Source: an uncultured Candidatus Saccharibacteria bacterium (GTDB lineage: Bacteria > Patescibacteriota > Doudnabacteria > UBA920). From it: a DNA stretch of 48,954 bases. Shown piece by piece: positions 5,904-28,253 of the stretch. The stretch lies in the NCBI GenBank assembly GCA_964592725.1, contig CAZQFQ010000003.1:1-48954 (forward strand). The letters are read 5' to 3'. The notes beneath the pieces were generated by a model. That model saw only the letters and a list, made by a program, of their open reading frames with translations, was not told the DNA's origin and made no database searches. How positions within the stretch are numbered: position 1 is the stretch's first letter; the number at the start of each line of letters is the position of its first letter. The position numbers and the translations under genes are program-made.

Positions 5904-6551
5904 ATGAGCAAACTTACCCAAAGATATAACTCCATTAGATCGCACAAATTTTTTTACATCCAACTGGCTATAGGGGTTTTATTTTTATCCCTCAGCCTGT
6001 TTTTTAATTATTACGCGCAAGCCTTTACCGCAACCCATGCCAGTAATTCCGTAACCGATATAATTTTAGACCATTTGCCAGCCAAAAATGTCGACGATGT
6101 TTTTCTGGAAGGCATGTTGATTTTTATTGCTTTTGTCACCTTGCTGGCTTTGCATAAACCCAGCCGCATTCCTTTTATTCTTAAAGCCTCCGCCTTATTT
6201 ATCTTTACAAGGGCGATTTTTATCACCTTAACCCATTTAGCGCCCCCCGCCCATATGACCACCGTCCATTCGGTAAGCTTTTTGGAAAGGTTGATCTCCG
6301 GTTCCGGGGATGATTTATTTTTTTCCGCTCATACCGGCTTTCCGTATTTAATGGCATTGATATTTTGGGAGACAAAATATCTGCGCTGGCTGTTTCTGGC
6401 GACATCCATATTTTTTGCCGGAGCAGTGCTTTTGGGGCATTTGCACTACTCAATAGACGTCTTCTCCGCTTTCTTTATAACCTACGGCATTTTCAACATC
6501 GCTAAGCGCTGGTTCAAAAAAGATTACGAATTTTTTTACTACCACAAATGA
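5904..6551 (+). CDS. integral membrane protein, PAP2_C / sphingomyelin-synthase-like phosphatase fold
   Basis: 215 aa with about 6 TM helices. Motifs SAHTGFP and GHLHYSIDVF match the C2/C3 motifs of the PAP2 superfamily. Confidence 0.5.
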   Translation: MSKLTQRYNSIRSHKFFYIQLAIGVLFLSLSLFFNYYAQAFTATHASNSVTDIILDHLPAKNVDDVFLEGMLIFIAFVTLLALHKPSRIPFILKASALFIFTRAIFITLTHLAPPAHMTTVHSVSFLERLISGSGDDLFFSAHTGFPYLMALIFWETKYLRWLFLATSIFFAGAVLLGHLHYSIDVFSAFFITYGIFNIAKRWFKKDYEFFYYHK

Positions 6552-13275: not shown

Positions 13276-13458
13276 GATTTAACGGGGTGAAAATCCGACA
13301 GCTGGCTCCACATTTTGCGCAACAAAATGTGCCCGACGAAGCCTTGGCGAAGCCGGGCTTTAAACGTCATTGATGGATCGATGGCGTTAACAGATTTTCC
13401 TGACGCCCAGGACAATCACAATTCATAACTCCTAATTCTTAATTCATAATTCCATCAT

Positions 13459-13614
13459 ATGTCCCAGGACCATCTCATAAACATGGAGTGCACGGTTTGC
13501 CATAATTTAAATTATCAAACCCAAAAGAACAAAAAAAATACCGCCAAGCGTTTGGAACTGCAAAAATTCTGCAAATTCTGCAAAAAGAAAACCTTGCACA
13601 AGGAAACCAAATAG
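13459..13614 (+). CDS. rpmG: 50S ribosomal protein L33
   Basis: 51-aa ORF absent from the ORF track: [51 protein letters not shown]. Has the CxxC..CxxC zinc ribbon and KNKKN signature. Confidence 0.9.
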
Positions 13615-13640
13615 GTTAATATAACTGATAATTTATAATT

Positions 13641-13804
13641 AGAAGCTATCTCAAAATTAGCTTTTGAGGAAAAATTGAGGAATTTTGAGCGGATTGGCCT
13701 TTAACAAATTTTGACGTTTAGCCGGAGCTAAGCGGAAAAATTTTTAAGGACAAGACGCCAAAATTACTCGATTTTAACCAAAATGGAATTTTGAGATAGC
13801 TTCT
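13641..13804 (+). mobile_element. MITE-like palindromic element, copy 2 (diverged arms, conserved core)
   Basis: Termini AGAAGCTATCTCAAAATT / AATTTTGAGATAGCTTCT are perfectly complementary. The core is about 90% identical to copy 1. Confidence 0.75.
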
Positions 13805-24470: not shown

Positions 24471-24502
24471 AATAAGCCATCCTTTATAAGGGTGGCTTAT
24501 TT
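24471..24502. terminator. bidirectional stem-loop terminator
   Basis: AATAAGCCATCC-tttataa-GGGTGGCTTATT, flanked by A-rich sequence on the left and T-rich sequence on the right. Lies between convergent genes. Confidence 0.6.
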
Positions 24503-24661
24503 GTTGTTTTTTCCTTATTTATTTGTTTTAACGAAATATTTTATTACGTTATTAGAGTTTTGATAATATTTTCTTTTTGCTCTGGCAATTTTAATCCCCT
24601 GCTTACATACTTTTAACTTCTTAAATTTATCTTGTCGTGTTAAATTGAAAGTTATGCTTAA

Positions 24662-25999
24662 CTAGAAGCTTTTCGATTTCCTTAGTTGGACAATGATTGC
24701 GGGCAAAACTTTTAATACGTAGTCTAAATCCGCTTTGGTCGTTGTTTTGCCCATACTGATCCTTATACTGCTTTTGGCTTCCTTTTTTGACTTACCAATA
24801 GCTAATAGGACATGAGAAGCGTCGCTACTGCCGGTACTGCAGGCACTGCCTGTGGAAACTGCTATGCCATAGCTGTCTAAATATAACATTAGCGCTTCAC
24901 CCTCAACGCCTTTAATAGCAATATTGATGTTATTCGGCAATCTATACGAGGCCGAGGGTAACCCTCGGCTGGAGGGTTGCTTTTGTCCGAGGGTTACCCT
25001 CGGGTCGGGACCATTTAACGTCACCCCATCAATTTCCATCAGTTTTTCTATAAAATACCTCTGCAATTTCCCAATTTCCCAATTTCCCAATTTCTTTTCA
25101 TTTTCTGCAATCTCCAAAGCTTTGGCCAGTCCGACAATCCCCGGAACATTTTCTGTGCCGCTTCTTAAACCCCGCTCCTGCCCGCCGCCGTAAACCAGGG
25201 GCTTTAAATTCACCCCGCTCCTAACATATAAAAAGCCTGTCTGTTTTGGACCATAAATTTTACTCCCGTTTACGGACATTAAATCAACACCCAAACGATT
25301 AACGTTGATATCAAGATACCCTGCGGCTTGACAAGCATCGGTATGCAATACTATCCGTGTTAATCCTTTCCGTTCCCTATCCGTGTTTATCTGTCTCACC
25401 CACTTCCCTATTTTGGCAACAGGTTCTATTGTGCCGATTTCATTATTGGCCAACATTACTGAAATCAAAATTGTTTCGGGTTTGATAGCGGATTTGAGTT
25501 GATCGATTTTTATAAAACCACCTGTCTCAACCCCTATCAAACTTGTCTTATACCCCTCCCCTTCCAGCGCCTTAAAAGAATTTAACACGCAGTGGTGTTC
25601 TATGGCTGAAGTTATAAGATGCGGCGATCCGTGTTTATTCGTTTTAGAATCCGTGTTCATCCGTACCGTACCAAATATTGCAAGATTAACGCTCTCCGTT
25701 CCGCCGGCCGTAAAAATAATTTCCGATGGTTTGGCCCCAATAATATCGGCTATCTTTTTTCTGGATTCTTCAACTGCTTTTTTTGCCTCAATCCCCTGCT
25801 TATACAAACTGGATGGATTGCCAAAAGAACTGCTCCAAAAAGGAGTCATTGCTTTTAAAACCCGCGGATCAACCGGCGTGGACGCCGCGTGGTCCAAATA
25901 AATTAATTTTTTTTGAGGCTTAATTTTTGGTAACATAAAAGTTAAATGAAAGCCGCCGGATAAAATAACCGGCGGCAAAAGAAGGATAGTGTCCACCAA
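24662..25999 (-). CDS. iscS: cysteine desulfurase, IscS/NifS type (class V aminotransferase)
   Basis: YLDHAAST, HTDACQA, SVNGSKIYGPK (PLP Lys) and STGSACSTGS (catalytic Cys loop). The likely true start is MLPKIKPQ at 25936. The CDS carries four repeat-like in-frame inserts. Confidence 0.85.
   Translation of the reverse strand: MVDTILLLPPVILSGGFHLTFMLPKIKPQKKLIYLDHAASTPVDPRVLKAMTPFWSSSFGNPSSLYKQGIEAKKAVEESRKKIADIIGAKPSEIIFTAGGTESVNLAIFGTVRMNTDSKTNKHGSPHLITSAIEHHCVLNSFKALEGEGYKTSLIGVETGGFIKIDQLKSAIKPETILISVMLANNEIGTIEPVAKIGKWVRQINTDRERKGLTRIVLHTDACQAAGYLDINVNRLGVDLMSVNGSKIYGPKQTGFLYVRSGVNLKPLVYGGGQERGLRSGTENVPGIVGLAKALEIAENEKKLGNWEIGKLQRYFIEKLMEIDGVTLNGPDPRVTLGQKQPSSRGLPSASYRLPNNINIAIKGVEGEALMLYLDSYGIAVSTGSACSTGSSDASHVLLAIGKSKKEAKSSIRISMGKTTTKADLDYVLKVLPAIIVQLRKSKSF
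24950..25014. repeat. CCGAGGGT(T/A)ACCCTCGG twin-palindrome element inserted in frame in iscS
   Basis: CCGAGGGTAACCCTCGG, 18-nt spacer, CCGAGGGTTACCCTCGG. Encodes ..PRVTLGQKQPSSRGLPSA.. Same design as 46599-46662 and 47055-47118. Confidence 0.75.
25064..25095. repeat. 8-bp tandem repeat (CAATTTCC x3 plus one imperfect unit) inside iscS
   Basis: Read directly from the sequence. Encodes LGNWEIGKL on the minus strand. Confidence 0.85.
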
Positions 26000-26440
26000 A
26001 AGCTTCGCCCTATAATGGAGAAGCGCCAGAGCTTATCTTTCTGCGGATCAGTTACCTAATCAGCTGGGTGAGCCGAAGATCGCCTGTCTTCGTTTAGTAT
26101 TACTCCCCGTAACACCATCCTCCTTCTTGCCACGTCCCTTGTGTGTTTACCCATTAAGAGTAAAATCGTTGGAATTGCTCCCAAGATCCGGCCGCGCTAT
26201 GCCGGCACAAAAGGCGCTCCGCATGACACCCGCAGAGCAAAGGCTCGGTACTATCTTCCCGGTATTGCATTAGACCTTCGTGAATGTTCCACTTCCCGGA
26301 GCCCCTTTGCCTCCGGTAACCACTAACTAGCTGCAGTTAGTATCACCCTCATCACGAAGAGTAATTATTTCACTTTGGCCTAAGAATACCGATCAAAACT
26401 CCCGATCGATTACAGCTAATAGTACAAAAAGATTAAGAAT
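25990..26440. ncRNA. candidate large structured ncRNA of unknown class
   Basis: About 0.4 kb with stops in all frames and visibly higher GC than the flanks. Many local helices on the minus-strand reading: GCAAAGGGGCUC/GAGCCUUUGC, UUGGGA-GCAA-UUCCAA (GNRA loop), GAAGA-CAGGCGA-UCUUC, CUCUGC-GGGUGUCAU-GCGGAG. Strand and ends not determined. Confidence 0.35.
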
Positions 26441-26443
26441 TTG

Positions 26444-26845
26444 TCAACGGCTGGATTTAATAAACCCGGCGGCCAGGGCTTCGGCTTCGGTGTTAAAGCA
26501 TTGTTCGGGTTTTACGCGCGCGTAAAACGCGCCGCCCTGGACATGGTAAATCTTTTTGCCGGTTGAAGAGATATTTCCTTTTACTATGCACGACGCTGAA
26601 GCCTGGGTGCTGGTTGCCTGCTTGGCAGTCCCCTGTCCTGTTGTGCCGGTTTCCGCGGCCGCTGGTTTTTTAGCCGGAACTGTGGTATAATTTGGATAAG
26701 GTTTACTGCTTTTGTTTGTCTCACGAACATAACTCCCCGCGCCAAAACCGACTATAAAAACCAACACAAAACTAAGCCCCAGCACGAGCTTATCTTTATT
26801 TTCTTTTTGTTTCAGCCAGTCTTTTGCTTTTTCGTAAAACGCCAT
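26444..26845 (-). CDS. membrane-anchored protein with a C-terminal 'sunset'-type small domain
   Basis: N-terminal TM helix, a Thr/Ala-rich linker, then CIVKGNISSTGKKIYHVQGGAFYARVKPEQCFNTEAEALAAGF. This is the KGNI..KIYH..G..Y...CF.[ST]E.EA.AAGF pattern. Confidence 0.5.
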   Translation of the reverse strand: MAFYEKAKDWLKQKENKDKLVLGLSFVLVFIVGFGAGSYVRETNKSSKPYPNYTTVPAKKPAAAETGTTGQGTAKQATSTQASASCIVKGNISSTGKKIYHVQGGAFYARVKPEQCFNTEAEALAAGFIKSSR

Positions 26846-26876
26846 TGGCTTAACTATAGCACATTTTACCTGACTT

Positions 26877-28253
26877 ATGAAATACGCCTTTATTTTAGGG
26901 AGGGTTTATACTTTATCGGTCGCCGAACTTTTGGCTGTTTTGGAAAAAACAGATGCCTCTTTAAATTTAACCGGAGAGCCTGTCAAAATTTTGGAAGCTT
27001 CGGAAGAAGTTTTGATAGTGGAAACTAGCAAACCCCTTAACGCGGAGCGTCTGCAAAAAAAACTGGGCGGAGTAATAAAAATTTTGGAAGTTGTTGATAT
27101 TATAAAAAAACGCGAGCAGGATTCGGTTAACTTTGCCCTAAAGCATTATTTTAAACCGGGAATTTTAAAAAATAAATTCTTTAAAGATTACAAAGGCAAA
27201 GTGCAATTCGGTTTGAGCATTTATGTTTTGGATATGGATTTGCTCAAGCGGCCTCAACCGAATTTCAGAGATAAAGATCGGGGGCAATCTTTTTCCGCCG
27301 GAGGCGGATCGTCCCTTGGCGGAAACTCCATCTTTAGTGAACCAAAGCGCATCGGAATGATGATAAAAAACGGGCTCACCGAAAGCGGCGCGAGCGCAAG
27401 ACTGGTTTTGCCGGAATACAATTCCCTATCTTTGGCTTCCGTAGTCGTTACCAAAAATTTATTGTTGCAAAAAGGCGCGGAAATTTGCATTCTGGCGGCC
27501 AAAGATAACATTTTTACCGCCAAGACTTTAACCGTGCAGGATTTTGAAGACTACGGCAGAAGGGATTACCAACGTCCTGCCCGCAACGAAAAACAGGGAA
27601 TGATTCCGCCGAAAGTGGCGCAAATTATGCTTAACCTTTCGGGTTGTAAATCCGGTAACGGAATTTTGGATCCGTTTTGCGGCATCGGCACAATCATTCA
27701 GGAAGGTTTACTGCTCGGCTTCCGGATGATTGGCAGTGATATTAATAAAATCGCGATAAAGGGTTCGGAGCAAAATTTGGAATGGTTCCGCAACCGCTAC
27801 AAAATCGCCCCGGGGAAATACGGCGTAGAAGTTTCCGACGCGGCAAAAGTCGCCGATCTAATTGAAAAATCTAAAAGCCAAATAGCCGCCATTGTTACCG
27901 AAGGCACACTTGGACCGATTTACGGCCAATACCCCAAAGCCGATGAAATTGCCAAAAATTTTAAAGACCTGGAAAAACTTTACAAAGCCAGTTTTAAAGA
28001 GTTTGCCAAATTCCTGCCAAAACAAGCCAGAATTGTTATGTGTATTCCGGCTTACAGAAAAAACCGCGACCAATACGAAATGTTCCCCTCTCTTGACTTC
28101 GCGACCGAGTTAGGATATAATTTAGTGGATATTATTTCTCCGACCGTAACTAAAAAGCTTAAATTCCTTAAGCTCACAGCCAGAAACACGGCAATTTACG
28201 ATCGAAAGGATCAGGTAGTCGCGAGGGAGATAGTTGTTTTTCAAAAAAATTAA
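26877..28253 (+). CDS. putative SAM-dependent RNA methyltransferase (Trm11/UPF0020-like)
   Basis: C-terminal Rossmann motif I, ILDPFCGIGTIIQEG, and GSDIN. The motif IV position reads TEGTLGP rather than DPPYG. Contains the repeat-derived insert SFSAGGGSSLGGN. Confidence 0.5.
   Translation: MKYAFILGRVYTLSVAELLAVLEKTDASLNLTGEPVKILEASEEVLIVETSKPLNAERLQKKLGGVIKILEVVDIIKKREQDSVNFALKHYFKPGILKNKFFKDYKGKVQFGLSIYVLDMDLLKRPQPNFRDKDRGQSFSAGGGSSLGGNSIFSEPKRIGMMIKNGLTESGASARLVLPEYNSLSLASVVVTKNLLLQKGAEICILAAKDNIFTAKTLTVQDFEDYGRRDYQRPARNEKQGMIPPKVAQIMLNLSGCKSGNGILDPFCGIGTIIQEGLLLGFRMIGSDINKIAIKGSEQNLEWFRNRYKIAPGKYGVEVSDAAKVADLIEKSKSQIAAIVTEGTLGPIYGQYPKADEIAKNFKDLEKLYKASFKEFAKFLPKQARIVMCIPAYRKNRDQYEMFPSLDFATELGYNLVDIISPTVTKKLKFLKLTARNTAIYDRKDQVVAREIVVFQKN
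27291..27325. repeat. TTTTCCGCC..GGCGGAAA double-hairpin repeat inserted in frame in the methyltransferase gene
   Basis: TTTTCCGCCGGAGGCGGATCGTCCCTTGGCGGAAA. Confidence 0.75.

Follow-up and report, generated by a model that had tools for sequence, protein, structure and literature searches.

A predicted multi-domain noncoding RNA with a Shine-Dalgarno look-alike in its closing helix, encoded upstream of a cysteine desulfurase gene in Candidatus Doudnabacteria

Introduction

OLE, ROOL, GOLLD, raiA and HEARO are orphan large structured noncoding RNAs (ncRNAs) of bacteria. In transcriptional riboswitches and attenuator leaders of the ON type, such as the adenine riboswitch, the 3' strand of the closing helix P1 overlaps the terminator. 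The STAB-SD of the Bacillus cryIIIA mRNA is a stabiliser that resembles a Shine-Dalgarno (SD) sequence and binds the 30S subunit without translation. 6S RNA is a long rod of about 180 nucleotides (nt) with a central bubble. Here we compare with these systems a candidate RNA gene found in 48,954 nt of DNA (contig CAZQFQ010000003.1, assembly GCA_964592725.1; hereafter the window, meaning this whole stretch, to which all positions refer). The candidate occupies the gap between a gene for a 133-amino-acid (133-aa) protein, whose stop lies at 26444, and a NifS/IscS-type cysteine desulfurase gene, whose ATG lies at 25936. A sequence-only reading of the window had noted that this gap holds no credible open reading frame (ORF), is enriched in guanine plus cytosine (GC) and folds extensively on the minus strand.

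Like the orphan large ncRNAs, the predicted RNA is longer than 400 nt, has several folded domains and its own promoter and terminator, occurs among environmental RNA, is restricted to a lineage and is, as they were at their discovery, without a known function. It differs from them in matching none of their models, in belonging to a family found in about one genus and not in whole phyla, and in the variation of that family in sequence and domain number between species. With the ON-type leaders it shares a position before a gene and a long-range P1 that ends at the start of the terminator, with up to 8 nt in common. Unlike them, the family has no conserved core inside P1 and carries large extra domains upstream of it; the RNA gene is inverted in one species and the downstream gene often has its own promoter. 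With the STAB-SD it shares a GAAGGAGG-type tract that has no credible ORF behind it and is complementary to a retained 16S ribosomal RNA (rRNA) tail, GGAUCACCUCCUUUCU. In contrast to the STAB-SD, which lies at the 5' end, the tract is internal, some 285 nt into the RNA, and in the full-length RNA it is paired with a strand resembling the anti-SD, its binding being a prediction only.

The RNA belongs to no described family; it represents a new one, narrowly distributed and familiar in its general kind. At the level of search listings, our literature search returned no paper describing this RNA and none on ncRNAs specific to the Candidate Phyla Radiation (CPR)/Patescibacteria, which make up a large share of bacterial diversity. 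The RNA has an unusual signature, a masked SD look-alike in a genome that barely uses SD sequences, and it offers a concrete target for work on RNA structure and on ribosome handling or the control of sulfur mobilisation in reduced cells. Its narrow distribution and its unknown function limit its immediate reach. We lean, by a little, towards the view that the gap holds a stand-alone, self-contained gene for a multi-domain, highly folded ncRNA of about 415-467 nt on the minus strand.

A predicted transcription unit that matches environmental RNA

The gap appears from its signals to be an ORF-free, GC-enriched transcription unit with its own promoter and tandem intrinsic terminators. The predicted elements of the unit, all on the minus strand, are as follows, listed in the direction of transcription.

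26419..26447, minus strand: sigma-70-like promoter, TTGACA-17 nt-TACTAT, matching at 10 of 12 positions, with TG directly before the -10 box
25945..26411, minus strand: predicted full-length transcript, of about 467 nt if it ends at terminator T2 and of about 415 nt if it ends at terminator T1
26245..26405, minus strand: Domain 1, closed by the helix GGUAUUCUUAGGCC/GGUCUAAUGCAAUACC, with hairpins and a GAGGGUG junction motif inside
26129..26244, minus strand: Domain 2, four hairpins (CUCUGC/GCGGAG, GCCGG/CCGGC, GCAA-capped UUGGGA/UUCCAA and UUACUC/GGGUAA)
26111..26131, minus strand: P1 5' strand, GGCAAGAAGGAGGAUGGUGUU, inner pairs at probability p>=0.998
25998..26024, minus strand: T1 terminator hairpin, GCUUCUCC-AUUAUA-GGGCGAAGC followed by UUUU, pair probability 0.85
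25974..25994, minus strand: P1 3' strand, GGACACUAUCCUUCUUUUGCC, a pyrimidine tract resembling the anti-SD tail, its final GCC common to the base of T2
25944..25976, minus strand: T2 intrinsic terminator, GCCGCCGG-UUAUUUUAU-CCGGCGGC and then UUUCAUUU, inner five pairs at p>=0.99

The -35 box overlaps the TGA stop codon of the upstream gene, and the transcription start site is placed from the position of the -10 box. At the other end, T2 finishes 8 nt before the desulfurase ATG, so that the unit reaches past 25990, where the sequence-only reading had drawn its left edge, as far as 25944.

Part of the region 25600-26900 is contained in 16 public runs from 13 studies, 12 of which are metatranscriptomes; the RNA runs share 0.12-0.41 of the region's sequence words. 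Contigs were placed on 24500-27500 for four RNA runs from four studies (X3, X4, X8 and X9). Each run yielded one contig of 403-434 nt within 25976-26402, with 0 mismatches:

25984-26392: contig of X3, with Illumina adapter letters at 26392
25976-26402: contig of X4
25997-26398: contig of X8, with Illumina adapter letters at both ends (25997 and 26398)
25997-26399: contig of X9

Pieces that match the unit exactly therefore occur in environmental RNA libraries of four studies, which is what the sequence-only reading had proposed to look for, and the contig spans agree with the unit predicted from promoter and terminators. The contigs of X8 and X9 stop at 25997, just past T1, a weak hint of a 3' end; those of X3 (to 25984) and X4 (to 25976) continue over the 3' strand of P1. 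The read-1 adapter lies on the low-coordinate side, which fits minus-strand RNA provided that the libraries are dUTP-stranded. From the flanking genes we found only a 151-nt contig of depth 3 at 26378-26528 (X3); uncovered parts are no evidence, and contig depth cannot rank genes.

GC content is 0.49 in 25976-26402, compared with 0.442 in the whole window and 0.29-0.44 in its other 10 spacers of >=200 nt, in agreement with the enrichment first noticed by eye. The minus-strand fold of 25990-26440 reaches -150.7 kcal/mol (z -2.89), and 1 of 100 shuffles was equally good, as against z -1.60 and 9 of 100 shuffles for the plus strand. The earlier proposal of a large structured minus-strand ncRNA of an unidentified class is supported, all the checks that it had named having turned out in its favour.

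P1, of about 20 base pairs (bp), closes Domain 3. Its 5' strand can be written GGCAAGA-A-GGAGGAUGGUGUU and pairs with GGACACUAUCCUUCUUUUGCC; within it the purine tract AAGAAGGAGGA (26128-26118) resembles an SD sequence. The duplex has a predicted energy of -19.6 kcal/mol, and 2 of 200 shuffles were equally good. In the full-length ensemble the GGC:GCC clamp of P1 forms at p 0.38 and the three basal pairs of T2, its competitors, at p 0.62; the two helices have 3 nt in common in the full-length fold and none when the 3' domain is folded alone. The GAGGGUG junction motif is common to the window RNA and three relatives; the pattern GNGGGUGR occurs at loci L012, L013, L015 and L025, and a looser version at L026.

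Five helices had been put forward from the letters alone. In the ensemble of the full RNA, UUGGGA-GCAA-UUCCAA, GAAGA/UCUUC and CUCUGC/GCGGAG form at pair probabilities of 0.92-1.0, the two tested hairpins of Domain 2 included. The 11-bp helix GCAAAGGGGCUC/GAGCCUUUGC and the helix GUAAACAC/GGUGUUAC are complementary yet have a probability of about 0, because more stable helices, namely the long Domain 1 helix and P1, compete with them. The two CCGGGAAG repeats described with the first of these were located at 26299 and 26262.

Coding potential and known RNA families

The absence of a credible ORF between 25936 and 26444 was confirmed. The sizeable frames in the gap are a 61-aa GTG frame at 26141-26326 on the plus strand and, from stop to stop, frames of at most 85 aa, the two longest (85 and 84 aa) both lying on the plus strand. 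The eight frames scanned in the gap were all without a Pfam match at E<=1. Similarity among the gaps of relatives was found in all frames and on both strands, and is not frame-specific. Neither the translated comparison nor Pfam gave a protein signal, so the protein-coding pseudogene that the sequence-only reading had named as its possible undoing did not appear.

Against 4227 Rfam families, cmscan of the window gave just three transfer RNAs (tRNAs) at gathering score, and a scan of 25850-26550, taken to E<=10, matched no family and gave nothing better than E = 1. No family was found at E<=0.5 in the loci of 15 relatives. The models of OLE, ROOL, GOLLD, HEARO and raiA, which are among these families, had no match in the window, the region or the 15 relatives.

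One explanation is that the RNA is a strongly diverged version of a universal RNA, that is, ribonuclease P (RNase P) RNA, transfer-messenger RNA (tmRNA), signal recognition particle (SRP) RNA or 6S RNA. Its length would suit RNase P RNA or tmRNA, and Rfam models find neither SRP RNA nor 6S RNA in the genome. However, no Rfam family matches the region, and each candidate meets an objection of its own. RNase P RNA (RF00010/RF00011), which has P4 and other conserved regions and occurs once per genome, has no match in the region, and the genome's copy is at C25:18303-18766 (79.8 bits, E 7.7e-25, model positions 1-367). For tmRNA (RF00023), which has tRNA-like ends and a tag reading frame, ARAGORN gives no candidate in the window, only three tRNAs, and the genome's tmRNA is at C29:5148-5544 (107.8 bits). 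SRP RNA (RF00169/RF01854), marked by its domain IV motif and partnered by Ffh, has no match in region or genome, and the genome contains no Ffh M domain or SRP54 GTPase domain, leaving neither Ffh nor FtsY as a partner. 6S RNA (RF00013) likewise has no match in region or genome, and the predicted fold has three branched domains over 415-467 nt and is not a 6S-type rod. We consider a disguised universal RNA almost certainly the wrong explanation.

The RNase P RNA on contig C25 matches RF00010 over its full length, yet its 79.8 bits lie below the 100-bit gathering score; standard annotation would therefore miss the gene.

Further candidates were tried and set aside. A T-box leader, which carries a stem I with a specifier and a conserved T-box sequence in an antiterminator bulge and was suggested by UGGUG after the purine tract, had no Rfam match in the region or the 15 relatives (E<=0.5), and the UGGUG is paired in the consensus, which counts against it. 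A CsrA sponge was rejected, the genome being without CsrA. A leader peptide or small ORF was rejected on the inconsistency among loci of the ORFs behind the purine tract.

A fast-evolving RNA family in relatives

The relatives are labelled Candidatus Doudnabacteria, and the genus set comprises 19 species including that of the window. The desulfurase is present in 18 of the 18 other species at 55-72% identity. Most species of the genus have a gene with a sunset domain upstream of it, followed by a gap of 94-653 nt. A structured, fast-evolving RNA was recognised at this spot in 15 of the 19 species; a recognisable copy is missing in four (L014, L021, L023 and L024).

The gaps of relatives carry a promoter placed at the sunset-domain gene's stop codon, several of them in the same CGTTGACA arrangement as in the window, and 15 of 19 gaps have a GC content above that of the surrounding 1.5 kb. 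The only widely common words are AAGGAGG and AGGAGGA (each in 13/17 gaps of >230 nt) and CCTCCTT (8/17). The hallmark of the family is a purine strand, GCAGAAGGAGGA, complementary to the 16S 3' tail, together with a pyrimidine strand that mimics this tail; the pyrimidine tract lies downstream and ends where a G+C-rich terminator starts. In the 14 co-oriented loci the predicted purine/pyrimidine duplex is at or below -18.6 kcal/mol, a value reached by at most 15 of 200 dinucleotide shuffles, and some species have two such modules. The interiors of the P1 domains (45-280 nt) cannot be aligned among loci, and the upstream domains are not conserved either. Domain number and sequence vary by species; the terminal purine/pyrimidine helix and the terminator stay constant.

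Covariance models, R2 among them, were built for the compact terminal module. In an alignment of the terminal hairpin from seven species, 15 of 26 pairs change on both sides and 93.8% of cells pair. None of 500 shuffles matched this pairing, and sliding the partner by 1-3 columns lowered it to 46-67%; the alignment was fitted to the model, which biases it towards the structure. With filters off, R2 scored L025 (28 bits), L022 (22.6), L044 (17.5), the window locus (15.2, E 0.083) and L051 (12.9) at the expected spots, along with one unrelated match at 23.6 bits. Across the 19 genomes it found only syntenic sites and two ordinary terminators (G012:C2 and G000:C33, the latter in the window's own genome). 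At E<=0.01 in whole genomes R2 recovers 7 of the 15 known loci, and its silence in the four genomes lacking the RNA is uninformative.

Outside the genus the architecture was found at 2 of 68 desulfurase loci (L044 and L051) by a script that finds only 6 of the 19 genus loci; a second script flagged 13 loci, and both are insensitive. A metagenome scan with the N-terminus of the desulfurase gave five distant loci and nothing usable. The window locus has all four traits of the family, namely the place, an own promoter, the purine/pyrimidine closing helix and an adjoining terminator, and the same four are found at 14 further loci of the genus and at L044 and L051. Judged from these shared traits, the RNA is a member of a putative, undescribed and fast-evolving family in one genus of Candidatus Doudnabacteria and at least two more distant genomes. 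The one feature constant across the family is the predicted 3' domain, closed by a long helix that stacks directly on the terminator.

The same comparison bears on whether the gap is a decayed gene or a functionless spacer transcribed by chance. Such decay would account for a primary sequence that is not conserved even inside the genus and for the four species without a recognisable copy. It would not account for the retention of promoter and terminators, for helices retained through compensatory changes, or for a GC content and fold above background, and no protein remnant was seen. We judge this explanation very improbable.

Free RNA or leader of the desulfurase mRNA

The main competing explanation sees in the RNA a long mRNA leader of the cysteine desulfurase gene that attenuates transcription in cis, and in the RNA of the libraries the terminated form of this leader. 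The promoter at the stop of the sunset-domain gene would then serve the desulfurase, and P1, as antiterminator, would compete with the base of T2. Whether transcription ends or reads through would be decided by a factor on the single-stranded purine tract, for which the 30S subunit (by way of its anti-SD tail) and a protein are candidates. We regard this as possible, if rather unlikely.

Several observations speak for the attenuator and weigh against a stand-alone gene. The RNA is co-oriented with the desulfurase and immediately upstream of it in 14 of 15 loci. In the window genome no -10 box lies between T2 and the desulfurase ATG, and the desulfurase here may therefore depend on read-through. 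Genome G010 (L023) has no RNA, and the same promoter leads straight to the desulfurase. P1 and terminator have nucleotides in common in 10 of 17 loci (ensemble), the layout of a termination switch, and in the window the competition between the GGC:GCC clamp and the basal pairs of T2 fits such a switch. The 16S tail, moreover, retains CCUCC. Further points count against the stand-alone gene in a more general way. No partner or target is known for the RNA; its true ends, strand and level cannot be read from the contigs; and its membership of the family rests mainly on place and architecture, since a BLASTN search of 60 relatives with the region returned nothing beyond a 30-nt chance match, nhmmer against 19 syntenic upstream regions found only the region itself, and the model E is only 0.083. 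With no close homologue, the structure of the window copy has no covariation support of its own.

Other observations are hard to reconcile with an attenuator. In genome G012 (L016) the whole RNA unit is inverted, lies on the opposite strand and points away from the desulfurase with its architecture intact: a promoter-like site TAGACG-17-TATACT with a preceding TG, the purine tract with its partner about 320 nt further on, and a terminator with U7. This inversion rests on one assembly. A riboswitch or leader should always lie on the coding strand, and G012 departs from this. A -10 box lies between terminator and desulfurase start in at least 10 of 21 loci. Nine of these have the consensus TATAAT, placed 6-15 nt ahead of the desulfurase ATG and often after TG; the tenth, L024, has AATAAT 22 nt before the ATG. 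In three more loci a TATAAT closes the extracted stretch. At L044 the desulfurase gene starts about 380 nt beyond the RNA terminator. A switch also has no need of 250-450 nt of extra folded domains upstream of P1. A conserved core for a ligand or factor would be expected of a leader, but only the purine and pyrimidine words are widely common; the interior of P1 and the upstream domains are not conserved, and there is therefore no candidate ligand pocket. Finally, P1 and terminator overlap by just 0-8 nt, and at 7 of 17 loci they do not overlap at all.

At L044, positions of about 1660-2000 hold further non-coding, partly palindromic sequence before the desulfurase, with a TATAAT-like box of its own.

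We favour the stand-alone gene because the architecture is kept on inversion and because a promoter for the desulfurase itself usually follows the terminator. The two explanations are not mutually exclusive: in co-oriented species without a second promoter, leakage through the terminator would still set desulfurase expression. As a stand-alone gene product, the RNA would work as a free, stable molecule and not as a leader of the desulfurase mRNA, and it may serve as scaffold or decoy, with a protein or the anti-SD end of the ribosome as its partner. The 3' strand of P1 sits between T1 and T2; an RNA ending at T1 would therefore leave the purine strand without its partner, and transcription to T2 would mask it. 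The choice of 3' end could in this way set the amount of exposed SD-like sequence in the cell.

The flanking genes, both on the minus strand, are the following.

24662..25936, minus strand: NifS/IscS-type cysteine desulfurase gene, downstream neighbour, lacking in this genome both an SD and a good -10 box of its own
26444..26845, minus strand: upstream neighbour, encoding the 133-aa protein; sunset domain (NF051437, 57.5 bits) at its C-terminus

The desulfurase start agrees with 12 of 18 relatives that align from residue 1, the others aligning from residues 6-10. The 133-aa protein has a hydrophobic N-terminus before its C-terminal sunset domain, and it weakly matches the ArfC sunset variant. 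NCBIfam sunset-domain variants include fusions to the ribosomal proteins L4, L17, L20 and S2 and to ArfC; our literature search on the sunset domain, again at the level of search listings, surfaced nothing relevant.

The Shine-Dalgarno look-alike and its lineage

Even a 4-mer SD precedes only 8 of the 60 ORFs of the window. A -10-like (TATAAT-like) hexamer lies 5-10 nt before the start in 9 of 60 ORFs, compared with 66 of 2000 random positions, and because this exceeds the random expectation, it suggests that leaderless mRNAs are frequent in this genome. The 16S rRNA of four members of the genus (loci L127-L130) still ends in GGAUCACCUCCUUUCU, the anti-SD tail.

We considered whether the RNA is the mRNA of one or more small proteins, with the SD-like tract driving a short ORF in the P1 domain; in the window copy this would be an ORF of 19-20 aa starting from AUG 26118 or GUG 26115. 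A perfect SD-like tract where SD sequences are rare speaks for such an mRNA, as does a start codon 0-14 nt downstream of the tract in most loci. The ORFs behind the tract, however, vary from 2 to 84 aa, start mostly with UUG or GUG and include no conserved one; at L015 and L018 no such ORF exists. Conservation specific to a reading frame was not seen, and the AUG of the window copy directly touches the SD core (spacing 0). In several relatives the apparent start UUGUUUG is one strand of a covarying stem, and the tract itself is paired in P1. A small-protein mRNA is thus very unlikely in our estimation. Because the ORFs behind it are inconsistent, we infer that the purine tract is part of the RNA's own structure or a binding site and not a translation signal; binding of the tract by the 30S subunit or by a protein is likewise only inferred.

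The SRP system appears to be missing from the window genome (99.74% complete). In it, PF02978 gave 0 candidates for an Ffh M domain, PF00448 found no SRP54 GTPase domain, the DTAGR motif occurred in no ORF, and SRP RNA was not matched by RF00169 at E<=10 or by RF01854 at E<=1. With neither an Ffh M domain nor an SRP54-type GTPase, no SRP RNA is to be expected. Among 61 genomes of the order, 19 gave PF00448 matches, all of them weak and at the level of the P-loop (<=24.6 bits, about 25-85 of 196 model positions), and RF00169 was found in 1 of 41 genomes of the family. The lineage seems to lack Ffh, FtsY and SRP RNA. A literature search on SRP loss in the CPR surfaced nothing relevant at the level of search listings.

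Against this background it is conceivable that the RNA is ribosome-directed and lineage-specific and that its closing helix reproduces, within one molecule, the SD/anti-SD duplex. Three circumstances make the idea conceivable: SD sequences are hardly used and the anti-SD is nevertheless kept; the whole SRP system is apparently absent; and the RNA gene always follows the gene for a membrane-anchored protein with a sunset domain, a domain fused elsewhere to ribosomal proteins. A stop at T1 would free the purine strand for pairing with the 16S tail, and the RNA together with the membrane-anchored protein could form a new way to hold or park ribosomes. We think this very improbable.

Palindromic repeats elsewhere in the genome

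A purine/pyrimidine search for further copies of the RNA in the window genome gave unrelated palindromic repeats only. A repeated palindromic element with paired hairpins, of the type CCTCCTTAGAAAGGAGG beside CAGCACCACTTTTTTG...CAAAAAAGTGGTGCTGG, is present on contig C29 at about 13450-13650 and on contig C45 at about 6070-6190 and 6100-6500. The copy on C29 seems to lie within, or directly in front of, a coding region similar to an aminoacyl-tRNA synthetase.

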